From NCBI RefSeq assembly GCF_003018235.1, contig NZ_CP027437.1: a DNA stretch of 64,000 bases; one strand, written 5' to 3'. The position numbers and the translations under genes were made by a program. The DNA is from Escherichia coli. GTDB taxonomy: Bacteria; Pseudomonadota; Gammaproteobacteria; Enterobacterales; Enterobacteriaceae. This document shows, piece by piece, positions 26,387 through 64,000 of this stretch. The stretch's first letter is position 1; each line of letters starts with the position of its first letter. Below the pieces are notes generated by a model, which was not told where the DNA came from, searched no databases, and worked only from the letters and a program-made list of their open reading frames with translations.

Positions 26387-27151
26387 TCAGAAATTAAATT
26401 TGATGGAGTAGATTATTGCATCCTGGTAAAAATCTTCGCCCAGTTTGTCATCCGCATAACGATACTGAATCCCTGTGGTGATGTGTGAAGTTGCATTCCA
26501 CCAAAGTGCGACGGCACCGTTCAGACCTTCTTTGCCGCCATTACCTGCCGCGTAGGTGGCATCACGATCAAACTCGTACTCGTTCCAGTTGGTGAGGGTG
26601 AATTTCTCATTGCCCAGCATAAAGCTGTAACCTGCAACCCAACCGGCTACATAGCCGTTGTCGCCAGTGTAATAGGTTTGATCTGTATAACGCTTAGCAA
26701 AGAACGGTTTGAACCACCAACCGCTGCCGGTGAAATTGTAGCCGATCCCGTAAAGGAACATATCGTCATGGAAATTCACACGATTCGCAGAACCGTAGGT
26801 GCCATACGCATGCAAGTAGAGATTAAATCCGGTGTCACCCAGGTAAATACGGTTGGTATTTTTAAATGTATAACGCTGCTCGCTACCCGGTTTATCATGA
26901 CGATCATTATAAAAGTTTTCCCAGTCGAAGAACCCGTACATTTCTCCCCAACTAAAGTTAGCGCCGCCTTCCAGTTCCAGATATCCAAAATCATCTTTGT
27001 GTGATTTGGTCGACGATTTCTCAGTGGTTCTGCTAGTCCAGTCAAGATAATGAATACCTATATCAGCAAAACCGCCTTTAAATTCTGCATGGGATACTGC
27101 TGGTATCGCCAATACAGAAGAGAGTGTCAGAGTAAAAAGATGTTTTTTCAT
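26387..27151 (-). CDS. yfeN: outer-membrane beta-barrel protein YfeN
   Basis: 254-aa ORF with signal peptide, aromatic-rich, C-terminal F. Confidence 0.85.
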   Translation of the reverse strand: MKKHLFTLTLSSVLAIPAVSHAEFKGGFADIGIHYLDWTSRTTEKSSTKSHKDDFGYLELEGGANFSWGEMYGFFDWENFYNDRHDKPGSEQRYTFKNTNRIYLGDTGFNLYLHAYGTYGSANRVNFHDDMFLYGIGYNFTGSGWWFKPFFAKRYTDQTYYTGDNGYVAGWVAGYSFMLGNEKFTLTNWNEYEFDRDATYAAGNGGKEGLNGAVALWWNATSHITTGIQYRYADDKLGEDFYQDAIIYSIKFNF

Positions 27152-28292: not shown

Positions 28293-29546
28293 ATGAGCAT
28301 CGCTTTGCGCTTAAAGGTAATGTCCTTTTTGCAATATTTTATCTGGGGGAGCTGGCTGGTTACCCTCGGTTCTTACATGATTAATACCCTTCATTTCACC
28401 GGCGCTAATGTTGGCATGGTTTACAGTTCCAAAGGGATCGCCGCGATTATTATGCCTGGTATAATGGGGATCATCGCAGACAAATGGCTGCGTGCAGAAC
28501 GTGCATACATGCTGTGTCACCTGGTGTGTGCAGGCGTACTTTTTTATGCGGCATCCGTAACTGATCCGGATATGATGTTTTGGGTGATGTTAGTCAATGC
28601 GATGGCGTTTATGCCGACTATTGCGTTATCGAACAGCGTCTCTTATTCCTGTCTTGCCCAGGCAGGGCTTGACTCGGTGACCGCTTTCCCGCCCATTCGC
28701 GTTTTTGGTACGGTGGGGTTCATTGTCGCCATGTGGGCAGTAAGCCTGCTGCATCTGGAATTGAGTAGTCTGCAGCTGTATATCGCGTCCGGTGCGTCAT
28801 TGCTGCTGTCGGCTTATGCGCTGACTTTGCCGAAGATTCCGGTTGCGGAGAAAAAAGCGACTACATCGCTTGCCAGCAAGCTGGGTCTGGATGCCTTCGT
28901 GCTGTTTAAAAATCCACGCATGGCTATCTTTTTCCTCTTCGCCATGATGCTGGGCGCGGTGCTGCAAATTACCAACGTTTTTGGCAACCCGTTCCTGCAT
29001 GATTTCGCCCGTAATCCTGAGTTTGCTGATAGCTTCGTGGTGAAATACCCGTCCATTTTACTGTCAGTTTCACAGATGGCTGAAGTCGGTTTCATTCTGA
29101 CGATACCGTTCTTTTTGAAGCGTTTCGGTATTAAAACCGTCATGCTGATGAGTATGGTGGCGTGGACGCTGCGCTTTGGCTTCTTCGCCTATGGCGATCC
29201 GTCAACAACCGGATTTATTTTGCTGCTGTCGATGATTGTTTATGGCTGTGCATTCGATTTCTTCAATATTTCTGGTTCGGTATTTGTCGAACAGGAAGTT
29301 GATTCCAGCATTCGTGCCAGCGCGCAGGGCCTTTTTATGACGATGGTAAATGGCGTCGGCGCATGGGTTGGCTCGATTCTGAGCGGTATGGCAGTGGATT
29401 ACTTCTCGGTGGATGGCGTAAAAGATTGGCATACCATTTGGCTGATGTTTGCAGGGTATGCTCTTTTCCTCGCAGTGATATTTTTCTTTGGGTTTAAATA
29501 TAACCATGACCCTGAAAAGATAACGCATCGTTCAGTTACACATTAA
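28293..29546 (+). CDS. xapB: xanthosine permease (nucleoside:H+ symporter family)
   Basis: 417-aa polytopic ORF downstream of xapA. Confidence 0.92.
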   Translation: MSIALRLKVMSFLQYFIWGSWLVTLGSYMINTLHFTGANVGMVYSSKGIAAIIMPGIMGIIADKWLRAERAYMLCHLVCAGVLFYAASVTDPDMMFWVMLVNAMAFMPTIALSNSVSYSCLAQAGLDSVTAFPPIRVFGTVGFIVAMWAVSLLHLELSSLQLYIASGASLLLSAYALTLPKIPVAEKKATTSLASKLGLDAFVLFKNPRMAIFFLFAMMLGAVLQITNVFGNPFLHDFARNPEFADSFVVKYPSILLSVSQMAEVGFILTIPFFLKRFGIKTVMLMSMVAWTLRFGFFAYGDPSTTGFILLLSMIVYGCAFDFFNISGSVFVEQEVDSSIRASAQGLFMTMVNGVGAWVGSILSGMAVDYFSVDGVKDWHTIWLMFAGYALFLAVIFFFGFKYNHDPEKITHRSVTH

Positions 29547-29598
29547 AAGGATTCGCAGCTCTGTTCCTTGGGGCTGCTTTTATGATAAAGGTTAATTA

Positions 29599-29757
29599 GT
29601 GAAAGATATTTTATTTTCTTCTGGCGTTGGTTTTGGCATTGGTGCTTTGTTTACAATCGTGCGCTTGCCTATTCCTGTACCAAATGTATTACCGGGTATA
29701 TTATCCATTGTGTTTATGTATGTCGGATATCTGGTGGTGAAATACTTTATGCCATGA
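29599..29757 (+). CDS. small hydrophobic protein (52 aa, GTG start), possibly XapX/DUF1427-like
   Basis: Manual translation: (M)KDILFSSGVGFGIGALFTIVRLPIPVPNVLPGILSIVFMYVGYLVVKYFMP-stop; AAGG 8 nt upstream; absent from ORF track (<60 aa, non-ATG). Confidence 0.45.
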   Translation: MKDILFSSGVGFGIGALFTIVRLPIPVPNVLPGILSIVFMYVGYLVVKYFMP

Positions 29758-29797
29758 TAATTTAATACGATGTATTTATTATATGGAGCACTTAATT

Positions 29798-30682
29798 ATG
29801 GAACGCGTATACAGAACAGATCTTAAGTTGCTCCGTTATTTTCTTGCCGTAGCGGAAGAGTTGCATTTTGGTCGCGCAGCAGCGCGTTTAAATATGTCTC
29901 AGCCTCCGCTCAGCATTCATATTAAAGAGCTGGAAAATCAACTCGGCACGCAGCTTTTTATTCGCCATTCGCGCAGCGTCGTACTGACACACGCGGGCAA
30001 AATCTTGATGGAAGAATCGCGTCGATTGCTGGTGAATGCAAATAATGTATTGGCTCGGGTTGAACAAATAGGTCGGGGAGAAGCAGGGCGGATTGAACTC
30101 GGGGTTGTGGGAACGGCAATGTGGGGACGGATGCGCCCGGTTATGCGGCGATTCCTCAGGGAAAATCCTAACGTTGACGTTCTTTTTCGCGAAAAGATGC
30201 CCGCGATGCAAATGGCCCTGCTGGAACGACGTGAACTCGATGCCGGAATCTGGAGAATGGCGACAGAACCACCGGCAGGTTTTACCAGCTTACGGTTGCA
30301 TGAATCGGCGTTTCTGGTGGCGATGCCTGAAGAGCATCATCTCTCATCATTTTCCACCGTTCCGCTGGAAGCGCTACGTGACGAGTATTTTGTTACAATG
30401 CCGCCCGTGTACACTGACTGGGATTTTTTGCAGCGAGTTTGCCAGCAGGTGGGATTTTCACCGATTGTTATTCGCGAAGTTAATGAACCGCAAACGGTAC
30501 TCGCCATGGTCAGTATGGGTATTGGTATCACATTGATAGCGGACAGCTACGCGCAGATGAACTGGCCCGGTGTCATATTCCGTCCGCTCAAAGAACGCAT
30601 CCCGGCAGACTTATATATTGTTTATGAAACGCAGCAGGTGACGCCCGCGCTGGTTAAACTGCTGGCGGCGTTGGCGCAGTAG
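29798..30682 (+). CDS. xapR: LysR-family activator of xapAB
   Basis: ORF track 29783..30682; ATG at 29798 gives 294 aa starting MERVYRTDLKLLRYF. Confidence 0.92.
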   Translation: MERVYRTDLKLLRYFLAVAEELHFGRAAARLNMSQPPLSIHIKELENQLGTQLFIRHSRSVVLTHAGKILMEESRRLLVNANNVLARVEQIGRGEAGRIELGVVGTAMWGRMRPVMRRFLRENPNVDVLFREKMPAMQMALLERRELDAGIWRMATEPPAGFTSLRLHESAFLVAMPEEHHLSSFSTVPLEALRDEYFVTMPPVYTDWDFLQRVCQQVGFSPIVIREVNEPQTVLAMVSMGIGITLIADSYAQMNWPGVIFRPLKERIPADLYIVYETQQVTPALVKLLAALAQ

Positions 30683-30792: not shown

Positions 30793-30868
30793 TGGTGGGT
30801 CGTGCAGGATTCGAACCTGCGACCAATTGATTAAAAGTCAACTGCTCTACCAACTGAGCTAACGACCC
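30793..30868 (-). tRNA. lysV: tRNA-Lys (anticodon UUU)
   Basis: Reverse complement reads GGGTCGTTAGCTCAGTTGGTAGAGCAGTTGACTTTTAATCAATTGGTCGCAGGTTCGAATCCTGCACGACCCACCA. Confidence 0.95.
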
Positions 30869-30872
30869 GAAG

Positions 30873-30948
30873 TGGTGGGTGATGACGGGATCGAACCGCC
30901 GACCCCCTCCTTGTAAGGGAGGTGCTCTCCCAGCTGAGCTAATCACCC
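30873..30948 (-). tRNA. valY: tRNA-Val (anticodon UAC)
   Basis: Reverse complement reads GGGTGATTAGCTCAGCTGGGAGAGCACCTCCCTTACAAGGAGGGGGTCGGCGGTTCGATCCCGTCATCACCCACCA. Confidence 0.95.
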
Positions 30949-30994
30949 ACTTCGGTACTTCACATTGCTACAAGAAATTTAGCTGGCGAGAAAG

Positions 30995-31070
30995 TGGTGG
31001 GTGATGACGGGATCGAACCGCCGACCCCCTCCTTGTAAGGGAGGTGCTCTCCCAGCTGAGCTAATCACCC
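30995..31070 (-). tRNA. valX: tRNA-Val (anticodon UAC)
   Basis: Identical 76-nt copy. Confidence 0.95.
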
Positions 31071-31114
31071 ACTTCTCAATTTCTTGCTACACGGCGGAGA
31101 CTACATAAAGTAGT

Positions 31115-31190
31115 TGGTGGGTGATGACGGGATCGAACCGCCGACCCCCTCCTTGTAAGGGAGGTGCTCTCCCAGCTGAGCTAATCACCC
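31115..31190 (-). tRNA. valU: tRNA-Val (anticodon UAC)
   Basis: Identical 76-nt copy; first in the operon. Confidence 0.95.
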
Positions 31191-32887: not shown

Positions 32888-32921
32888 AGGAGAGATACCC
32901 CTGCCGTTTTTTATTTATTCT
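32888..32921. terminator. intrinsic terminator after gltX (overlaps yfeD stop)
   Basis: AAACGGCAGGAGAGATACCCCTGCCGTTTTTT. Confidence 0.6.
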
Positions 32922-33307
32922 GATTCATCTATGTCGAGACGAGCAAGGAAATTACGAATTCCTTCGCGTGACAAAAATTGCGCAACTTTTTCCTGCTCAC
33001 TGTGAGTCATGTTGTCTATTGCGCTGATGATTTGCCGATAAGCAGGAGTGCGAATCCCCGGTGCGTATTCGGCAAGGGGTTCTTCGGCTTCCAGAAGCAT
33101 CGGCGTGTTATGGAAGGCTGGCGTGTTCTGAATAAACTCGCAAACTTGCGTATCGACCAGAATAAGTCTGGCACGACCGCCTTTCACGCCAGGAAATTTT
33201 TCCGTTTTCCAGCCTTTTTCTCTGATCCAACGGTTAACAGTTTGTTTAGCCACACCGAGGCATTCAGCCAGTTCTTCGGTGGTCATTTTATTGCGTAATC
33301 TTTTCAT
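32915..33307 (-). CDS. yfeD: small HTH DNA-binding protein YfeD
   Basis: 130-aa ORF; paralog of the adjacent yfeC. Confidence 0.8.
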   Translation of the reverse strand: MKRLRNKMTTEELAECLGVAKQTVNRWIREKGWKTEKFPGVKGGRARLILVDTQVCEFIQNTPAFHNTPMLLEAEEPLAEYAPGIRTPAYRQIISAIDNMTHSEQEKVAQFLSREGIRNFLARLDIDESE

Positions 33308-33888: not shown

Positions 33889-33964
<76 letters not shown>

Positions 33965-34003
33965 AATTTTGCACCCAGCAAATTTGGTACGTAAACGCAT
34001 CGT

Positions 34004-34079
<76 letters not shown>

Positions 34080-55486: not shown

Positions 55487-56407
55487 TTAAATGTATAGCG
55501 ACGATTCTCCCACCGGGCGCGTTTTAAAGCGACGGTGGATCCAGAGGTACTGCTCCGGTGCGCGCATGATCTCTTTTTCGATAATCTTGTTCATATAGGC
55601 AGCGGCTTGATTTTCATCTGCCGGGTAGCCTTCCATCTCTGGGGTGATGTACAAACGATATCCGCTGTAATCCGCTTTTCTTACCATCGTTACGGTTAAC
55701 ATGGCTGCGCCAGAGAGACGTGAAAGGACATACGTACCATTGGTTGTGGCGACATTTTCCACCGCAAAGAACGGCGCGAAGGAGCTGCCTTTACGACCAT
55801 AATCCTGATCGGGAGCAAACCATACCGCTTCACCTTTCTTCAGTGCACCGACAATGCCGCGCAGATTATTTCTGCCGATCATCGCTTTGTTAGAGCGCAT
55901 GCGCCCACGGGTCTGCACCCATTCCATCAGCTGATTATTATGTGGACGATAGGTAGCCATCATTGGTTGGCACAGTCCCATCACGCGGCCGCCCAGCTCC
56001 AGCGACATAAAATGGACGCCGACAACCATTACGCCGCGATTTTGCATTTGTGCGCGTTTAAGGTTATCCAACCCTTCAACATCAAACCATTTACGTACGC
56101 GACTGTCGGGCCAGAACCACGCCATGCCGGTTTCTACCAGCGCCATGCCGAGTGAACGAAAGTTTTCGGCAATCATCTTCTCGCGTTCTTCCGCAGAATG
56201 CTGTGGGAAACAAAGTTCCAGGTTTTTACGGGCGATAGATTCACGCCGTTTCAGGAATGGTCGCGCCATTGCGCCAATACGCGTGCCGAGAAAGCAGAGA
56301 ACAGGATAAGGAAGCTGTACCCAAAGCCAGAGTACACCAAGCCCAAACCATGTGAGCCAGTAGCGAGGATGTAGAAACTCGCGGGAAAATTTGCATTGTG
56401 GAAACAT
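55487..56407 (-). CDS. lpxP: lipid A palmitoleoyl-ACP acyltransferase (cold-induced LpxL paralog)
   Basis: ORF track 55487..56473; ATG at 56407 gives 306 aa starting MFPQCKFSREFLHPRYW. Confidence 0.9.
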   Translation of the reverse strand: MFPQCKFSREFLHPRYWLTWFGLGVLWLWVQLPYPVLCFLGTRIGAMARPFLKRRESIARKNLELCFPQHSAEEREKMIAENFRSLGMALVETGMAWFWPDSRVRKWFDVEGLDNLKRAQMQNRGVMVVGVHFMSLELGGRVMGLCQPMMATYRPHNNQLMEWVQTRGRMRSNKAMIGRNNLRGIVGALKKGEAVWFAPDQDYGRKGSSFAPFFAVENVATTNGTYVLSRLSGAAMLTVTMVRKADYSGYRLYITPEMEGYPADENQAAAYMNKIIEKEIMRAPEQYLWIHRRFKTRPVGESSLYI

Positions 56408-56759: not shown

Positions 56760-57002
56760 ATGATTTATTTATGGATGTTTCTCGCCCTGTGTATTGTCTG
56801 CGTAAGCGGCTACATTGGTCAGGTCCTGAACGTGGTATCGGCGGTCTCTTCTTTCTTCGGCATGGTGATCCTCGCTGCACTCATTTATTACTTCACCATG
56901 TGGTTAACTAGCGGTAATGAACTGGTGACGGGGATATTTATGTTTCTTGCCCCGGCTTGTGGCTTGATGATTCGCTTTATGGTGGGGTATGGCAGGCGGT
57001 AG
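56760..57002 (+). CDS. yfdY: small inner-membrane protein YfdY
   Basis: 80-aa hydrophobic ORF. Confidence 0.75.
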   Translation: MIYLWMFLALCIVCVSGYIGQVLNVVSAVSSFFGMVILAALIYYFTMWLTSGNELVTGIFMFLAPACGLMIRFMVGYGRR

Positions 57003-57078
57003 TGGGTCAGGATGGTTCATTTGGGCAGGTGTTCACATCAGCATCAGACATGATTGTTCACCTGCCGTGTGACAGACG

Positions 57079-57354
57079 CTATCGCACAGGATGGATAAGA
57101 TAATTCGCCTTTGTCGGAAAAGGGGGCGGAATTTCTTCTGTGAGGTTTAATGGTGGCGCATCTTCTCTCATCTTAAACAAAATCGCCTGTGATGGCTGAA
57201 GTTTTGTAGAATGAGTTGTCGTCATCATTGACGTTTTTTCTGTCTCTTTATAGCTCGTCTCACTTCCACCACCAGAAATGGAAAATGCAAAAACATTGCA
57301 TGCCATAATAGAGACCAATAAAAATAAGCTAAAAAGCATTAAGTTTACTTTCAT
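57079..57354 (-). CDS. ypdI: small lipoprotein YpdI
   Basis: 91-aa ORF with lipobox (IMAC) after signal peptide; AT-rich. Confidence 0.75.
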   Translation of the reverse strand: MKVNLMLFSLFLLVSIMACNVFAFSISGGGSETSYKETEKTSMMTTTHSTKLQPSQAILFKMREDAPPLNLTEEIPPPFPTKANYLIHPVR

Positions 57355-57496
57355 AGAAAGTTATCCTGAAAATGGTTCACTGAAAACCTACGACGTTATT
57401 GCTGTATTTACATATAATTAATCAGTATTTACATCGATATAATAAATGACATCTCTTTTTGGTATATAAGAATAGTTCTCTGTGACAGGAAGCATA

Positions 57497-57514
57497 TTCC
57501 TACAATTGTAAGGC
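57497..57514 (+). promoter_or_regulatory. EvgA-box-like 18-bp inverted repeat upstream of yfdX
   Basis: TTCCTACA-AT-TGTAAGGC resembles EvgA consensus TTCPyTACA-N2-TGTAPuGAA; 136 bp before yfdX ATG. Confidence 0.5.
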
Positions 57515-57649
57515 TAAAATACTTCTTGCGATAATAACTACAACTGTAAGATAACCCTTTCAAAATGAGCGTTGCTCTCTGATTTCTCATTTCATGCTCA
57601 CCCAATATGATGGCGGCGTTTTCTAAAACTGTTAAAGAATGAGGTAAGT

Positions 57650-58282
57650 ATGAAACGTTTAATTATGGCTACGATGGTCACAGCAATTCTGGCATCTTCA
57701 ACTGTATGGGCGGCTGATAATGCACCGGTAGCGGCACAACAGCAAACTCAGCAAGTTCAGCAAACCCAGAAAACGGCAGCAGCAGAGCGTATCTCTGAAC
57801 AAGGTTTATATGCGATGCGTGACGTGCAGGTAGCGCGCCTGGCTCTGTTTCATGGCGATCCGGAAAAGGCAAAAGAACTGACCAATGAAGCTTCAGCTTT
57901 GTTGTCAGATGACAGTACCGAATGGGCAAAGTTCGCTAAGCCAGGTAAAAAGACCAATGTCAATGATGACCAATATATTGTCATTAATGCATCTATCGGA
58001 ATTTCTGAGAGTTATGTAGCGACACCCGAAAAAGAAGCCGCGATAAAAATTGCCAACGAAAAAATGGCGAAAGGGGATAAAAAGGGCGCAATGGAAGAGC
58101 TTCGCCTGGCCGGTGTTGGCGTAATGGAAAACCAATATCTGATGCCGCTCAAACAGACTCGTAATGCACTTGCTGATGCGCAGAAACTGCTTGATAAAAA
58201 GCAATACTACGAGGCAAACCTGGCGCTTAAAGGTGCGGAAGATGGAATCATCGTCGATAGCGAAGCACTGTTTGTGAACTAA
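57650..58282 (+). CDS. yfdX: periplasmic YfdX-family protein (EvgA-regulated)
   Basis: 210-aa ORF with signal peptide. Confidence 0.88.
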
Positions 58283-58340
58283 CGCTGACAGGCAGTATAT
58301 TGAGGTAAAGGATTTAACTCCCTCCAGCCGACAATTTTTT

Positions 58341-58369
58341 ATGACCACAATACGACAGATTGTGGTCAT
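58341..58369. repeat. perfect 11-bp inverted repeat with 7-nt loop, downstream of yfdX
   Basis: ATGACCACAAT-acgacag-ATTGTGGTCAT; no U-tract directly after the stem on either strand. Confidence 0.6.
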
Positions 58370-58793
58370 AAAATTATTTGGCGCTCGCGGTTCTATAAAC
58401 TCGCATTTTATCTTCCTCAAAGTAAACCGCAATAATCCCGTGTCATCACAAATCATTTATTATGTTATGTTTTATGGTACGCTTTAAAAATCGTAATCAT
58501 ACCCTTACTTGTAAATCACCGGCGCTTCTTACAGTTGTAAGAATAACATCACAAATGTCGCGGCTCTCTCTGATTACCGCGAACCAATATTTATCATATT
58601 CTTCTTTTCGTCCTCACTACTTACCATGCAGAAAGGAATTGGAAGTAGCGATGAAATGATTTTCAGTACTTGATACAGGAATTTAAAAATATCGAGTGCA
58701 GCTACGACGATATTTTGCGGATTATTTATAGAGGCGTTATGTCTTAAATAAACGCTAAATTAACACATATTTAATTAACTAATAGGTATTGCT

Positions 58794-60044
58794 ATGTCAA
58801 CTCCACTTCAAGGAATTAAAGTTCTCGATTTCACCGGTGTGCAATCTGGCCCATCTTGTACTCAAATGCTGGCCTGGTTTGGCGCTGACGTCATTAAAAT
58901 TGAACGTCCCGGCGTTGGTGACGTAACGCGTCACCAGCTGCGAGATATTCCTGATATCGATGCGCTTTACTTCACCATGCTTAACAGTAACAAACGTTCT
59001 ATTGAATTAAATACCAAAACAGCGGAAGGCAAAGAGGTAATGGAAAAGCTGATCCGCGAAGCTGATATCTTAGTCGAGAACTTTCATCCTGGGGCCATTG
59101 ATCACATGGGCTTCACCTGGGAGCATATTCAAGAAATCAATCCACGTTTGATTTTTGGTTCGATCAAAGGGTTTGATGAGTGTTCGCCTTATGTGAATGT
59201 AAAAGCCTATGAAAACGTTGCTCAGGCAGCGGGTGGCGCGGCATCCACTACGGGTTTTTGGGACGGTCCGCCGCTGGTAAGCGCTGCAGCGTTGGGTGAC
59301 AGCAACACCGGAATGCATTTACTGATCGGTTTACTTGCTGCTTTGCTGCATCGCGAAAAAACGGGGCGTGGGCAACGAGTCACCATGTCAATGCAGGATG
59401 CCGTATTGAACCTTTGCCGCGTGAAATTACGCGACCAGCAGCGTCTCGATAAATTGGGTTATCTGGAAGAATACCCGCAGTATCCGAATGGCACATTTGG
59501 TGATGCAGTTCCCCGCGGAGGTAATGCGGGTGGTGGCGGTCAGCCTGGCTGGATCCTGAAATGTAAAGGCTGGGAAACCGATCCTAACGCCTATATTTAT
59601 TTCACTATTCAGGAGCAAAACTGGGAAAACACCTGTAAAGCCATCGGCAAACCAGATTGGATTACCGATCCGGCATACAGTACAGCCCATGCCCGACAGC
59701 CACATATTTTCGATATTTTTGCTGAAATCGAAAAATACACTGTCACTATTGATAAACATGAAGCGGTGGCCTATTTGACTCAGTTTGATATTCCTTGTGC
59801 ACCGGTTTTAAGTATGAAAGAAATTTCACTTGATCCCTCTTTGCGCCAAAGTGGCAGTGTTGTTGAAGTGGAACAACCGTTGCGTGGAAAATATCTGACA
59901 GTTGGTTGTCCAATGAAATTCTCTGCCTTTACGCCGGATATTAAAGCTGCGCCGCTATTAGGTGAACATACCGCTGTGGTATTGCAGGAGCTGGGTTATA
60001 GCGACGATGAAATTGCTGCAATGAAGCAAAACTACGCCATCTGA
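58794..60044 (+). CDS. frc: formyl-CoA:oxalate CoA-transferase (family III)
   Basis: 416-aa [46 protein letters not shown]... Confidence 0.93.
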
Positions 60045-60097
60045 TATTAACGGGGGCTTTTGGCTCCCAATTTATAAAAATTTCGAGGTTATTAATC

Positions 60098-61792
60098 ATG
60101 TCAGATCAACTTCAAATGACAGATGGTATGCATATCATCGTTGAAGCATTAAAACAGAATAATATTGACACTATTTATGGTGTTGTAGGTATTCCTGTGA
60201 CGGATATGGCACGCCATGCCCAGGCGGAAGGCATTCGTTATATTGGTTTTCGTCATGAGCAGTCGGCAGGCTATGCCGCTGCGGCAAGCGGTTTTCTTAC
60301 CCAAAAACCGGGGATCTGCCTGACAGTTTCTGCGCCAGGATTCCTCAATGGTTTGACCGCATTGGCCAACGCAACGGTAAATGGTTTTCCGATGATCATG
60401 ATTAGCGGCTCCAGCGACCGCGCGATCGTCGATCTCCAGCAAGGTGATTATGAAGAGCTGGACCAAATGAATGCGGCAAAACCGTATGCCAAAGCGGCGT
60501 TTCGCGTTAATCAGCCGCAGGATCTTGGCATTGCATTGGCACGCGCTATCCGGGTCTCAGTATCGGGTCGCCCTGGCGGAGTTTATCTTGATTTGCCAGC
60601 AAATGTCCTGGCCGCGACGATGGAAAAAGACGAAGCGTTAACCACGATTGTAAAAGTTGAAAATCCGTCGCCAGCATTATTGCCATGCCCGAAGTCAGTC
60701 GCTAGCGCAATTTCGCTTTTAGCAAAAGCTGAACGACCATTAGTTATCCTTGGCAAAGGCGCGGCGTATTCACAAGCGGATGAACAGCTTCGTGAATTTA
60801 TTGAAAGTGCCCAGATTCCATTCCTGCCAATGTCTATGGCGAAAGGGATCCTCGAAGATACACATCCACTTTCTGCGGCAACTGCGCGTTCGTTTGCCCT
60901 GGCAAATGCTGACGTTGTCATGCTTGTTGGTGCACGACTGAATTGGTTACTGGCACACGGTAAAAAAGGATGGGCGGCAGATACACAGTTTATTCAACTG
61001 GATATTGAACCGCAGGAAATTGACAGCAACCGCCCCATTGCTGTGCCAGTCGTTGGCGATATTGCATCCAGTATGCAAGGTATGCTGGCAGAACTGAAAC
61101 AAAACACATTTACGACTCCACTGGTATGGCGCGATATTTTAAATATCCACAAGCAGCAAAATGCACAAAAAATGCATGAAAAATTAAGTACAGATACTCA
61201 ACCATTAAATTACTTTAATGCATTAAGTGCTGTGCGCGATGTATTGCGCGAGAACCAGGATATTTATTTAGTTAATGAAGGTGCAAATACCCTGGATAAT
61301 GCACGAAATATTATTGATATGTATAAACCACGTCGCCGTCTGGATTGTGGTACCTGGGGTGTCATGGGCATCGGTATGGGCTATGCCATCGGTGCTAGCG
61401 TGACCTCTGGTTCTCCGGTTGTCGCCATTGAAGGTGATAGTGCTTTTGGTTTCAGTGGGATGGAGATTGAAACGATTTGTCGATATAACCTGCCGGTGAC
61501 GATCGTTATTTTTAATAATGGCGGCATCTACAGAGGAGACGGTGTTGATCTCAGTGGCGCTGGTGCACCATCACCAACAGATCTATTGCACCATGCAAGG
61601 TATGACAAATTAATGGATGCGTTTCGTGGCGTTGGCTATAACGTCACTACGACAGATGAACTTCGTCATGCTTTAACCACCGGTATTCAGTCGCGCAAAC
61701 CGACCATTATTAATGTGGTCATCGACCCTGCAGCAGGAACTGAAAGTGGCCATATTACCAAACTTAACCCAAAACAAATCGCTGGTAATTAA
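60098..61792 (+). CDS. oxc: oxalyl-CoA decarboxylase (ThDP-dependent)
   Basis: 564-aa ORF with ThDP-binding motif GDSAFGFSGMEIETICRYNLPVTIVIFNNGG. Confidence 0.93.
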   Translation: MSDQLQMTDGMHIIVEALKQNNIDTIYGVVGIPVTDMARHAQAEGIRYIGFRHEQSAGYAAAASGFLTQKPGICLTVSAPGFLNGLTALANATVNGFPMIMISGSSDRAIVDLQQGDYEELDQMNAAKPYAKAAFRVNQPQDLGIALARAIRVSVSGRPGGVYLDLPANVLAATMEKDEALTTIVKVENPSPALLPCPKSVASAISLLAKAERPLVILGKGAAYSQADEQLREFIESAQIPFLPMSMAKGILEDTHPLSAATARSFALANADVVMLVGARLNWLLAHGKKGWAADTQFIQLDIEPQEIDSNRPIAVPVVGDIASSMQGMLAELKQNTFTTPLVWRDILNIHKQQNAQKMHEKLSTDTQPLNYFNALSAVRDVLRENQDIYLVNEGANTLDNARNIIDMYKPRRRLDCGTWGVMGIGMGYAIGASVTSGSPVVAIEGDSAFGFSGMEIETICRYNLPVTIVIFNNGGIYRGDGVDLSGAGAPSPTDLLHHARYDKLMDAFRGVGYNVTTTDELRHALTTGIQSRKPTIINVVIDPAAGTESGHITKLNPKQIAGN

Positions 61793-61861
61793 ATACTGAC
61801 ATCGTCTCCTCTTGCCAACTCATTATGCGATGGTGAGGGGACCCTTATCGGAAATACTATT

Positions 61862-62806
61862 ATGCTAACATTTTTTATTGGCGATTTATTGCCTATTATC
61901 GTAATCATGCTGTTGGGTTATTTTAGCGGCAGACGAGAAACTTTTTCAGAAGATCAAGCCCGGGCATTTAATAAACTGGTATTAAACTACGCTCTTCCTG
62001 CGGCTCTATTTGTATCTATTACCCGGGCAAACAGGGAAATGATTTTTGCGGACACTCGTCTGACCCTTGTATCACTTGTGGTTATTGTCGGATGTTTCTT
62101 TTTCTCCTGGTTCGGTTGCTACAAATTTTTTAAACGTACTCATGCAGAAGCAGCAGTATGTGCATTAATTGCAGGTTCACCTACCATTGGATTCCTGGGA
62201 TTTGCAGTTCTCGATCCTATTTATGGTGATTCCGTATCAACAGGTTTAGTTGTAGCAATTATTTCTATTATTGTTAACGCAATTACTATTCCTATTGGTC
62301 TGTATTTGCTGAATCCTTCCTCAGGAGCGGATGGTAAGAAGAATAGTAACCTGAGCGCATTAATTTCTGCGGCAAAGGAGCCAGTAGTATGGGCACCTGT
62401 TCTGGCAACGATCCTGGTGTTGGTTGGGGTAAAAATTCCGGCAGCATGGGACCCAACCTTTAATCTGATTGCGAAGGCTAACTCAGGGGTAGCGGTATTC
62501 GCTGCGGGGTTGACTCTGGCTGCACATAAATTCGAGTTCAGTGCCGAAATTGCTTATAACACCTTCCTGAAGCTGATTCTGATGCCACTGGCGCTGCTTC
62601 TCGTGGGTATGGCATGTCATTTGAACAGCGAACATCTGCAGATGATGGTACTGGCAGGCGCATTACCGCCGGCATTCTCCGGAATCATTATTGCAAGTCG
62701 GTTTAATGTCTACACCCGCACTGGTACAGCGTCATTGGCTGTGAGCGTACTGGGTTTTGTCGTCACGGCTCCCTTGTGGATTTATGTCAGTCGACTGGTT
62801 TCATAA
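61862..62806 (+). CDS. yfdV: auxin-efflux-carrier-family transporter
   Basis: 314-aa polytopic ORF downstream of oxc. Confidence 0.85.
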
Positions 62807-62834
62807 TTAATCATGTTATTGATTTTACATAAAT

Positions 62835-62865
62835 GCCGAAGTGTCTTTTCACCTTCGGCTTTTTT
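62835..62865 (+). terminator. intrinsic terminator after yfdV
   Basis: GCCGAAGTGTCTTTTCACCTTCGGCTTTTTT. Confidence 0.7.
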
Positions 62866-62879
62866 CAAGGCATAAGCAA

Positions 62880-64000
62880 ATGACAAATAATGAATGCAAA
62901 GGGCCGTTTGAAGGCTTATTAGTTATCGATATGACACATGTCCTTAATGGACCTTTCGGAACTCAACTTCTTTGTAATATGGGCGCAAGGGTAATTAAAG
63001 TTGAGCCGCCGGGTCATGGTGATGATACCCGCACATTTGGTCCCTATGTGGATGGACAGTCACTCTATTACAGTTTTATTAATCATGGCAAAGAGAGTGT
63101 GGTTCTTGATTTAAAGAATGATCACGATAAAAGTATATTTATAAATATGCTTAAACAAGCTGATGTATTAGCTGAGAATTTTCGCCCAGGTACAATGGAA
63201 AAACTGGGGTTTTCATGGGAAACGCTACAAGAAATCAACCCGCGTCTCATATATGCTTCATCGTCAGGTTTTGGGCATACCGGCCCGCTAAAAGATGCTC
63301 CAGCCTACGATACCATCATTCAGGCAATGAGCGGGATAATGATGGAAACAGGGTACCCTGATGCTCCGCCAGTGCGCGTGGGTACCTCTCTTGCGGATTT
63401 ATGTGGCGGTGTCTATTTATTCAGCGGAATAGTGAGTGCACTTTATGGCCGCGAAAAGAGCCAGAGAGGGGCGCATGTCGATATAGCGATGTTTGATGCC
63501 ACGCTGAGTTTTCTGGAGCATGGTCTGATGGCATATATTGCGACAGGGAAGTCACCACAACGCCTGGGAAATCGCCATCCCTACATGGCACCTTTTGATG
63601 TTTTTGATACTCAGGATAAGCCGATTACTATTTGTTGTGGTAATGACAAGCTTTTTTCTGCGTTATGCCAGGCACTGGAGCTTACGGAACTGGTTAATGA
63701 TCCCCGATTTAGCAGCAATATTTTACGCGTACAAAACCAGGCTATTCTTAAACAATATATTGAGCGAACGTTAAAAACGCAGGCAGCTGAAGTTTGGTTA
63801 GCCAAAATACATGAAGTTGGTGTGCCCGTCGCGCCGTTATTAAGTGTGGCTGAGGCCATTAATTTGCCACAAACTCAGGCGAGAAATATGTTGATTGAAG
63901 CCGGGGGAATAATGATGCCAGGTAATCCGATAAAAATCAGCGGCTGCGCGGACCCGCATGTTATGCCGGGAGCGGCAACGCTCGACCAACATGGGGAACA
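62880..64000 (+). CDS. yfdE: acetyl-CoA:oxalate CoA-transferase (family III, Frc paralog), 5' portion; continues past window end
   Basis: Manual translation from ATG 62880: MTNNECKGPFEGLLVIDMTHVLNGPFGTQLLCNMGARVIKVEPPGHGDD...; open to 64000. Confidence 0.85.
   Translation, partial: MTNNECKGPFEGLLVIDMTHVLNGPFGTQLLCNMGARVIKVEPPGHGDDTRTFGPYVDGQSLYYSFINHGKESVVLDLKNDHDKSIFINMLKQADVLAENFRPGTMEKLGFSWETLQEINPRLIYASSSGFGHTGPLKDAPAYDTIIQAMSGIMMETGYPDAPPVRVGTSLADLCGGVYLFSGIVSALYGREKSQRGAHVDIAMFDATLSFLEHGLMAYIATGKSPQRLGNRHPYMAPFDVFDTQDKPITICCGNDKLFSALCQALELTELVNDPRFSSNILRVQNQAILKQYIERTLKTQAAEVWLAKIHEVGVPVAPLLSVAEAINLPQTQARNMLIEAGGIMMPGNPIKISGCADPHVMPGAATLDQHGE

Follow-up and report, generated by a model that had tools for sequence, protein, structure and literature searches.

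The region from 57000 to 64000 of the window (the whole 64,000-nucleotide stretch of DNA that was analysed) was confirmed to be the ypdI / yfdX / frc-oxc-yfdV-yfdE region of E. coli. We are highly confident in interpreting it as an AT-rich oxalate and acid-tolerance locus that is controlled by EvgAS and whose core moves laterally together with its regulator and operators. Because EvgA control, the EvgA boxes, the enzymology, and the structures have all been published, the locus is already known; the original prediction re-identified a textbook E. coli locus and therefore opens no new question. A modest addition from comparison of the sequences is a putative positional rule, in which EvgA-box promoters would carry a -10-like hexamer 52 to 53 nt past the box.

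Megablast placed the 7 kb in 5,424 of the 5,426 complete E. coli genomes, with identities of 97 to 99%, and the matches are annotated as yfdY, ypdI, yfdX, frc, oxc, yfdV, and yfdE. In the NCBIfam scan, Frc (TIGR03253, 781 bits versus a cut-off of 504), Oxc (TIGR03254, 1043 versus 739), YfdV (NF007384, 714 versus 404), YfdE (NF008511, 867 versus 522, covering profile positions 1 to 373 of 381), and YfdX (NF007645, 376 versus 256) all scored far above their equivalog cut-offs, and the Pfam scan was consistent with these identities. For Frc, Oxc, and YfdE the curated cut-off is exceeded over the full length, and the three proteins are near-identical to structures 1pt5, 2q27, and 4hl6, respectively; Frc and YfdE share about 30% identity with each other. 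The functions of all three have been described, including that of YfdE as an acetyl-CoA:oxalate CoA-transferase (PMC3720670). The gene names of the original prediction are confirmed (megablast, NCBIfam equivalogs, and Pfam agree), and so is the claim that the genes form an oxalate-handling module: Frc, Oxc, and YfdE have been characterised in E. coli and their structures solved. According to established enzymology, Frc moves CoA from formyl-CoA onto oxalate, Oxc decarboxylates oxalyl-CoA with consumption of a proton, and YfdE primes the cycle from acetyl-CoA. YfdV is probably an oxalate/formate carrier; linkage of yfdV with frc-oxc was also found on Moellerella, Providencia, and Cetobacterium plasmids.

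The ypdI product had no match in the Pfam or NCBIfam scans, and its identity falls to 71% in an Escherichia lineage that has diverged. YfdX homologues range from 192 to 222 amino acids; the alignment traces this length polymorphism to isolated in-frame deletions or duplications, each in a single sequence and for the most part from metagenome assemblies, without a repeat tract. A 65-amino-acid open reading frame in the yfdX-frc spacer (58462-58659) was rejected as a gene on account of its overlap with box 3 and of a 1-nt indel that disrupts it in the diverged strain.

Table 1. Features of the locus and their positions in the window
Feature	Position	Strand	Description
ypdI	57079..57354	-	91-aa lipoprotein gene, divergent from yfdX; from annotation
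ypdI predicted -10	57439..57444	-	TATTAT, 52 nt after box 1 towards ypdI; inferred
EvgA box 1 (predicted)	57497..57514	.	TTCCTACAATTGTAAGGC, 16/18 to consensus; site of the original prediction
EvgA box 2 (predicted)	57535..57552	+	TAACTACAACTGTAAGAT, 15/18, 3 mismatches
yfdX predicted core promoter	57575..57611	+	CTCTCTGATT 57575-57584; -35 TTCTCA 57584-57589; -10 TATGAT 57606-57611
yfdX	57650..58282	+	periplasmic YfdX-family protein, 210 aa; NF007645, PF10938, PDB 6uxt at 1e-112
yfdX likely terminator	58337..58373	+	perfect 15-bp-arm hairpin, then T-rich tail; parts yfdX from frc
EvgA box 3 (predicted)	58526..58543	+	TTCTTACAGTTGTAAGAA, 18/18, 0 mismatches; 250 nt 5' of frc start codon
frc predicted core promoter	58566..58602	+	CTCTCTGATT 58566-58575; weak -35 TTACCG 58574-58579; -10 TATTCT 58597-58602
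frc (yfdW)	58794..60044	+	formyl-CoA:oxalate CoA-transferase; TIGR03253; PDB 1pt5, 1pqy
oxc (yfdU)	60098..61792	+	ThDP-dependent oxalyl-CoA decarboxylase; TIGR03254; PDB 2q27
yfdV	61862..62806	+	AEC-family (Mem_trans) transporter; NF007384, PF03547
yfdV-yfdE hairpin	62835..62865	+	GC-rich stem, then T6
yfdE	62880..64000	+	acetyl-CoA:oxalate CoA-transferase; NF008511, PDB 4hl6; window stops 8 codons short of gene end

The AT-richness that had been noticed from about ypdI onward is evident both in the sliding-window GC minimum and in the fall of GC3 at ypdI. GC content is 0.444 in 57000-64000 versus 0.515 in the rest of the window, and each of the ten 7-kb segments with the lowest GC in the 64 kb has its start between 56.0 and 57.0 kb. 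The drop begins at ypdI (GC, 0.39; GC3, 0.37), with which the AT-rich island opens; the adjoining yfdY has a GC3 of 0.63. The five genes from yfdX to yfdE have GC3 values of 0.40 to 0.43, and each of them lies below every one of the 44 other open reading frames in the window (0.578 ± 0.052; minimum, 0.435; Mann-Whitney p = 5e-7). GC content and codon usage had both been proposed as marks that set this DNA apart; GC and GC3 are clearly distinct, and codon-usage distance is mildly raised in the five genes (p = 0.005), with frc near the window average. The AT-rich DNA is part of a roughly 14-kb island, from ypdI to emrY, that reaches past the window through evgS, evgA, and emrKY.

A horizontal origin, as the original prediction suggested, is supported by this composition, by a break in synteny after ypdK, and by the mobile contexts in which the cassette is found in other genera. 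With alaC as the synteny anchor, glk-ypdBA-alaC-ypdK was conserved in three other Enterobacterales, and different genes directly followed ypdK. The gene lpxP was of no use as an anchor: in Salmonella and Yokenella it has a different location, between ydiJ/ydiI and sufA. A cassette of seven genes from yfdX to evgA, in identical order including evgSA, was found in Yersinia alsatica (80% DNA identity), where it adjoins an integrase, a resolvase, and IS1, and in Klebsiella variicola, where IS1/IS3/IS5 on one side and IS6 on the other enclose it on a conjugative IncFIB plasmid. Frc of the cassette matched at 96% in Y. alsatica and at 92% in the K. variicola type; beyond the cassette, the nearest Frc relatives among the matches listed (species representatives) belonged to the Morganellaceae (86%) and then the Burkholderiaceae (78%). 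A pattern running from E. coli to Morganellaceae to Burkholderiaceae was discarded as incomplete, the Yersinia and Klebsiella cassettes being missing among the matches listed. An E. coli "plasmid" (NZ_CP070008.1) was also discarded as evidence of mobility; it is a linear record with an ordinary chromosomal context from ptsP to evgA. It is proposed that the island core, yfdX-frc-oxc-yfdV-yfdE-evgS-evgA, moves laterally among Enterobacterales with its regulator and operators.

The EvgA box consensus, which we take to be the 18-bp inverted repeat TTCYTACA-N2-TGTARGAA, had three matches in the 64 kb (0.53 expected), all of them intergenic, within 806 bp 5' of yfdX and frc, and 5' of ypdI. With at most two mismatches allowed, there were two matches in the window versus 0.03 expected, a number reached in 0 of 100 shuffles. 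The consensus is presumed valid for this window because it recurs at established EvgA targets, 5' of emrK/evgA, safA, ydeP, and yegR in K-12. Box 1 was located at exactly 57497-57514 and has two mismatches versus TTCYTACANNTGTARGAA. Position 57513 is G in the window strain and A in most E. coli strains, which leaves those with one mismatch; the 61-mer identical to that of the window strain occurred in just 1 of 5,426 genomes, and apart from position 57513 box 1 does not differ between K-12, XJ6.1, and the diverged strain. The resemblance of this site to an EvgA box held, but its description as a near-perfect inverted repeat was overstated because only six of nine palindrome positions pair. The truly near-perfect palindrome is box 3, in which eight of nine positions pair and whose surrounding 71-mer was found in 5,406 of 5,426 E. 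coli genomes; neither it nor box 2 was part of the original prediction. The half-sites of box 2 are kept in the diverged strain, L002, with the spacer changed from AC to GT, and Y. alsatica and Klebsiella keep the box at the corresponding position. Box 3 likewise retains its half-sites in L002 and Y. alsatica and has a variable spacer. Thus, in these few sequences, the flanks of both boxes diverge while the half-sites stay and the 2-bp spacer is free to vary.

EvgAS control of the locus, which had been suggested from box 1, is supported, and the three boxes are predicted EvgA operators: in this window the consensus occurs only 5' of yfdX and frc, the motif recurs at K-12 EvgA targets, and published work agrees. 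PMC3720670 states that inverted repeats 5' of both yfdX and yfdWUVE are bound by EvgA, and it marks one repeat 5' of yfdX. In a constitutive evgS mutant, frc was the most strongly induced gene (PMC4283999), and low-pH co-induction has been reported (PMC10746267). Under this scheme, mildly acidic pH would lead EvgS to phosphorylate EvgA, and an EvgA dimer on the 18-bp repeats would activate sigma-70 promoters with poor -35 elements.

A -10-like TAnnnT begins 52 to 53 nt after the box in nine of nine EvgA-box promoters in a retrospective comparison (background, 0.03 per position). This register was first noticed post hoc and was then checked prospectively at yegR, which confirmed it. CTCTGAT and TAnnnT lie at offsets 24 and 53 downstream of box 2, and the frc promoter has the same offsets, 24 and 53, from box 3. 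The 50 nt after box 3 are almost identical in Y. alsatica, whereas the DNA upstream has diverged; the yfdX core promoter region, placed by promoter scan and geometry, is invariant across four Escherichia sequences. Gapped alignment of the DNA downstream of box 2 with that downstream of box 3, the box excluded, was not significant (p about 0.2); what the two share is a short element with a constant offset, not extended homology. Transcription is predicted to start near 57618 for yfdX and near 58609 for frc, the latter giving a leader of about 185 nt. Box 2, with its centre near -74.5, is the proposed activating site for the yfdX promoter. Box 1 probably has the usual spacing from the divergent ypdI promoter and is out of register for yfdX; the predicted ypdI -10 has the same hexamer and offset in K-12 and L002, and a start near 57431-57433 on the minus strand is predicted. 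By the 52- to 53-nt rule, box 1 would be assigned to ypdI and box 2 to yfdX. In published work ypdI was up 5.5-fold along with yfdX, ydeO, yegR, and emrK (PMC5811628). We regard as evenly balanced the fuller proposal that the ypdI-yfdX spacer would hold two back-to-back EvgA sites at a fixed register (centre near -74.5), with ypdI a direct target via box 1, and that yfdX to evgA would constitute a self-contained, laterally mobile regulon.

It is conceivable that the locus is an old resident that became AT-rich without transfer, through weak expression, relaxed codon selection, or H-NS silencing. Its presence did not vary among E. coli strains beyond the 5,424 of 5,426 genomes noted above, and the codon-usage distance is only mildly raised, with frc close to average. 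Moreover, no integrase or IS is annotated at the island borders in E. coli, the nearest tRNA is 23 kb off with none at the borders, and the K-12 borders have no common repeat of at least 11 nt. However, weak expression or silencing would have to be reconciled with a synteny break exactly at ypdK, with the same gene order, evgSA included, on an IS-flanked conjugative plasmid and in the Yersinia integrase/IS1 context, with the Morganellaceae and Burkholderiaceae relationships of Frc among the matches listed, and with five genes that all fall below the GC3 of every other open reading frame. We therefore consider residence without transfer improbable and favor a horizontal origin. Because the borders have no integrase, tRNA, or flanking repeats and the locus is in essentially every strain, any acquisition is ancient and now fixed, not strain-specific; the movement could have been into or out of Escherichia.

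Two alternatives concern what the repeats do. They might be bound by another FixJ/NarL-type regulator, such as RcsB, instead of EvgA, and TAAGAA within the boxes resembles half of an RcsB-type site. Expression of yfdX in Klebsiella pneumoniae is RcsB-dependent (PMC6394985). However, the distribution of the motif coincides exactly with the EvgA regulon as published (emrK/evgA, safA, ydeP, yegR, yfdX, and frc) and accompanies evgSA in other genera, and the EvgA of the Klebsiella plasmid has an identical recognition-helix region, all of which makes a different regulator very improbable. The assumption in the original prediction that box 1 is the main EvgA operator of yfdX, in which case box 2 would be a chance or auxiliary half-match, deserves more weight, although it too is unlikely. 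Box 1 is nearer to the consensus (one mismatch in most E. coli versus three for box 2), the diverged strain has it without change, the promoter scan shows a sigma-70-like promoter that overlaps it (-35 TTGTAA and extended -10 TGCGATAAT, 57506-57535), and PMC3720670 marks a single repeat 5' of yfdX. Read towards yfdX, however, box 1 has neither the CTCTGAT element nor a -10 at 52 to 53 nt, the offset at which ten other box-promoter pairs (the nine plus yegR) have their hexamer. Its polarity, with the perfect half towards ypdI, is like that of emrK, safA, and ydeP solely when read towards ypdI. Furthermore, homology with Y. alsatica begins 3' of box 1 yet still includes box 2 and the core promoter, and both Klebsiella versions have a palindrome at the box 2 position. 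These comparisons favor box 2 as the operator of yfdX.

The locus would be transcribed on the plus strand as two units, yfdX alone and frc-oxc-yfdV-yfdE, the latter driven from the perfect box 3; the wording "yfdX and yfdWUVE" in PMC3720670 is in line with two units. The hairpin after yfdX (-25.8 kcal/mol; z = -6.75), the stem of which is kept in Y. alsatica with a variable loop, is likely the yfdX terminator. The hairpin between yfdV and yfdE (-12.6 kcal/mol; z = -2.3) looks like a weak intrinsic terminator, as a candidate. The 211-nt stretch considered as a possible structured leader for frc folds no better than shuffles (z = -1.1). An Rfam scan of 54-64 kb with E values up to 1 gave chance matches alone, the best being the yfdX terminator hairpin as a miRNA (31.6 bits versus a gathering score of 92).

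The small gain from this analysis is an uncomplicated spacing rule for promoters that depend on EvgA; it would give each of the two boxes in the ypdI-yfdX spacer to a different gene, and it predicts where three transcripts start. An oxalate module with its own two-component regulator on plasmids and islands is also a tidy example of a transferable regulon, relevant to the spread of oxalate degradation and acid tolerance among gut Enterobacterales.

The locus shares gene order, proteins, both intergenic regions, and all three boxes with the E. coli K-12 yfdXWUVE locus (b2371-b2375; EvgA regulon), at 97 to 99% DNA identity, and the regulation and enzymology of the K-12 locus are published (PMC3720670 and PMC4283999). 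The window strain differs in the G at 57513 in box 1 and in a YfdX of 210 rather than 211 amino acids and is otherwise the same. The emrKY, safA-ydeO, ydeP, and yegR promoters have the same 18-bp repeat, a -10-like hexamer 52 to 53 nt on, and the better half-site promoter-proximal. The yfdX and frc promoters have CTCTGAT(T) at offset 24, whereas emrK, safA, and ydeP have AGTCYT at offset 23, where yegR has AATCCT, one mismatch away. The acid-stress cluster yfdX-kvhSA (EvgSA-like) of Klebsiella has yfdX in convergent orientation to an EvgS/EvgA-type pair; its palindrome, GTCTGACAGCTGTCAGAC, occupies the position of box 2, and the CTCTGAT and -10 offsets equal those in E. coli. On the Klebsiella chromosome, frc-oxc-yfdV-yfdE is absent from between yfdX and the kinase gene, and hdeA, hdeB, and hdeD flank the cluster. 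The Klebsiella half-site is TGACA where E. coli has TTACA. The Frc/Oxc/OxlT cycle of Oxalobacter formigenes has homologous Frc and Oxc (PDB 1p5h, 1e-168; 2c31, 1e-204) and the same proton-consuming chemistry. Unlike that cycle, the E. coli module is without OxlT and has an AEC-family YfdV, a priming YfdE, and a periplasmic YfdX attached; it serves acid tolerance under two-component control, whereas the Oxalobacter formigenes cycle serves energy metabolism.

The 57000-64000 region contains the end of yfdY, ypdI (- strand), yfdX, frc, oxc, yfdV, and yfdE, the last of which is truncated by the window end 8 codons short of the gene end. Of 5,426 complete E. coli genomes, 5,424 contained the region in a Megablast search, with 97-99% identity and the same gene names, and in K-12 the same gene order continues with evgS, evgA, emrK, and emrY. 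Frc, Oxc, YfdV, YfdE, and YfdX all scored far over the NCBIfam equivalog cut-offs, with concordant Pfam matches, and the four soluble proteins (YfdX, Frc, Oxc, and YfdE) were near-identical to structures 6uxt, 1pt5, 2q27, and 4hl6. These matches bear out the original prediction that frc, oxc, yfdV, and yfdE form an oxalate-handling module, in which YfdV is the putative transporter and Frc and YfdE are paralogues with ~30% identity. The locus has been published before, as have its regulation and enzymology; the original observation was correct and its interpretation was supported. The additions made here are incremental: a perfect EvgA box that had been missed, a promoter register rule, a candidate assignment of the first box to ypdI, and the plasmid- and island-borne forms of the cassette.

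The region had also been described as AT rich, and analysis of GC content and codon usage agreed. GC content was 0.444, compared to 0.515 in the remainder of the window, and the ten lowest-GC 7-kb windows of the 64 kb all started at 56.0-57.0 kb. GC3 was 0.40-0.43 for yfdX, frc, oxc, yfdV, and yfdE, under that of all 44 other long ORFs (mean, 0.578; sd, 0.052; minimum, 0.435; p = 5e-7), and the codon-usage distance of the five genes was only mildly increased (p = 0.005). There was a sharp GC3 step from 0.63 in yfdY to 0.37 in ypdI. In K-12 the AT-rich tract runs on past the extent of the window through yfdE, evgS (GC 0.41), evgA (0.40), emrK, and emrY (0.42) and ends at dsdA (0.51). Therefore, the AT-rich island is ~14 kb long and takes in both the regulator and its targets. 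None of the three other low-GC patches in the window spans several genes.

A synteny break past ypdK accompanies the low GC and GC3. AlaC is a core protein (89-95% identity across Enterobacterales), and the order glk-ypdB-ypdA-alaC-ypdK was kept in three other genomes, with different genes beyond it in each. In E. coli, lpxP separates ypdK from the island; in Salmonella enterica and Yokenella (compared loci L083 and L085), an lpxP homologue with 75-76% identity is found between ydiJ/ydiI and sufA of the suf operon, which points to lpxP having moved, or having been separately acquired, in the Escherichia lineage. The compositional and synteny evidence, together with the two mobile contexts of the cassette described below, upholds the proposed horizontal acquisition. 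No mobility genes, tRNA genes, or border repeats were found at the E. coli island borders; this result, together with the presence of the region in essentially all strains, speaks against recent arrival of the island in E. coli.

Coordinates of features in the window
Feature	Position	Strand	Description
Low-GC patch	26387-27151		ORF with GC 0.446, GC3 0.47
Low-GC patch	29001-30000		1-kb bin at 0.437
tRNA cluster Lys-Val-Val-Val	30793-31190	-	Far from island border
Low-GC patch	32915-33307		ORF with GC3 0.435
tRNA cluster Ala-Ala	33889-34079	+	Far from island border
lpxP	55487-56407
-10-like hexamer toward ypdI	57439-57444	-	TATTAT
Box 1	57497-57514		TTCCTACAATTGTAAGGC; 16/18 consensus positions; site of the original prediction
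Box 2	57535-57552		TAACTACAACTGTAAGAT; found at <=3 mismatches
yfdX-frc spacer	58283-58793		511 bp
Hairpin 3' of yfdX	58337-58373		Perfect 15-bp arms, T-rich tail; -25.8 kcal/mol, z = -6.75
Box 3	58526-58543		TTCTTACAGTTGTAAGAA; perfect consensus match, 250 nt upstream of frc
yfdV-yfdE hairpin	62835-62865		Weaker; GCCGAAGGTG... then T6, terminator-like; z = -2.3

The EvgA consensus is reportedly TTCYTACA-N2-TGTARGAA, as attributed to Masuda and Church in 2003. In K-12 it was present upstream of emrK/evgA, safA, ydeP, and yegR, the known direct targets of EvgA, and this recurrence independently validated the consensus. The sole other match in the ~55 kb of K-12 scanned was inside the ydeO coding sequence, with 3 mismatches. 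A search of the whole window at <=3 mismatches returned only boxes 1, 2, and 3 (0.53 expected), and at <=2 mismatches there were 2 sites, compared to 0.03 expected. The position of box 1 had been predicted exactly and its likeness to the EvgA box stood, but its description as a near-perfect inverted repeat was too generous, because only 6 of the 9 palindrome positions pair. Control by EvgAS, which had been proposed as well, is supported by the consensus boxes upstream of yfdX and frc and by published work: inverted repeats that precede yfdX and yfdWUVE (frc-oxc-yfdV-yfdE) are bound by EvgA (PMC3720670); frc was the gene with the strongest induction in an evgS-constitutive mutant (PMC4283999); and low pH co-induces yfdX, frc, yfdV, and oxc (PMC10746267).

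With offsets counted from the first base past each 18-bp box, a TAnnnT -10-like hexamer (background density, 0.03 per position) started at offset 52-53 in all nine promoters examined: emrK, safA, and ydeP of K-12; frc and yfdX (box 2) of the window; yfdX and frc of Yersinia alsatica; and yfdX on a Klebsiella variicola plasmid and on the Klebsiella quasipneumoniae chromosome. In a prospective test the rule held for yegR, with TATTAT at offset 53. This geometry places the box at a predicted center near -74.5, and transcription would start near 57618 (+) for yfdX, 58609 (+) for frc, and 57432 (-) for ypdI. CTCTGAT(T) at offset 24 was common to the yfdX and frc promoter class, and AGTCYT at offset 23 was common to emrK, safA, and ydeP, with AATCCT (one mismatch) at that position in yegR.

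Read toward yfdX, box 1 had no hexamer in this register. Read toward the divergent ypdI, it had TATTAT at offset 52 and the same polarity as the emrK, safA, and ydeP boxes, in which the distal half is imperfect and the perfect half (TGTAGGAA in box 1) is proximal. Judged from register and polarity, the balance tips slightly toward box 2 serving the yfdX promoter and box 1 the ypdI promoter. Glutathione exposure increased ypdI expression 5.5-fold, along with that of yfdX, ydeO, yegR, emrK, frc, and oxc (PMC5811628). Position 57513 in box 1 is G in the window and A in K-12, XJ6.1, and a diverged Escherichia strain (TGTAAGGC versus TGTAAGAC), and the 61-mer around box 1 as it stands in the window was identical in 1 of the 5,426 complete E. 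coli genomes. The G is probably neutral, because, toward ypdI, it is one of the two distal positions at which the emrK, safA, and ydeP boxes also vary. In the diverged Escherichia lineage (~90% identity in intergenic spacers) and in Y. alsatica, the box half-sites were retained and the 2-bp spacers and flanks were altered.

The hairpin 3' of yfdX, the stem of which is kept in Yersinia with a different loop, fits separate putative transcription units for yfdX and for frc-oxc-yfdV-yfdE. The yfdV-yfdE hairpin might hold expression of yfdE below that of frc, oxc, and yfdV. No Rfam family matched in the region, and folding of the frc leader was not significant.

The seven genes yfdX-frc-oxc-yfdV-yfdE-evgS-evgA were found again in two mobile contexts. 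The Y. alsatica cassette, with 80% DNA identity over 6.5 kb, 81-96% protein identity, and equally low GC, adjoins an integrase, a resolvase, and IS1, and its homology to E. coli starts just downstream of box 1. In K. variicola the cassette is on a 378-kb conjugative IncFIB plasmid, with IS1/IS3/IS5 at one end and IS6 at the opposite end. Another record, NZ_CP070008.1, a linear 198-kb sequence described as an E. coli IncF plasmid, has an ordinary chromosomal stretch (ptsP, ypdBA, alaC, lpxP, and yfdX to evgA); it is probably an assembly chimera or F-prime and was not counted as evidence of mobility.

In K. quasipneumoniae the chromosomal yfdX directly faces an EvgSA-like pair in convergent orientation and no oxalate genes intervene, and in Moellerella and Providencia frc-oxc-yfdV occurs but yfdX and evgSA do not; therefore, the cassette looks modular. 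The yfdX-frc spacer of the Klebsiella cassette is 123 bp (locus L092, 9484-9606; locus L091, 10625-10747), without hairpin or EvgA box, whereas the 511-bp spacer of E. coli and Yersinia contains a likely terminator and a predicted second EvgA promoter. The long spacer with its predicted promoter would thus be particular to the Escherichia and Yersinia form. It seems to have been inserted later and may be a copy of the yfdX promoter, with the same layout of box, N24, and then CTCTGATT. The EvgA encoded on the K. variicola plasmid has 79% identity to E. coli EvgA, with the recognition-helix region unchanged. Klebsiella sites at equivalent positions (locus L095, 9910-9927; locus L092, 8740-8757 and 19315-19332) have variant half-sites (GTCTGACA-GC-TGTCAGAC, TTCCGACA-AT-TGTCATCC, and TTCTTACA-TG-TGTCATCA), which suggests that the Klebsiella EvgA/KvhA orthologues may have a shifted recognition sequence.
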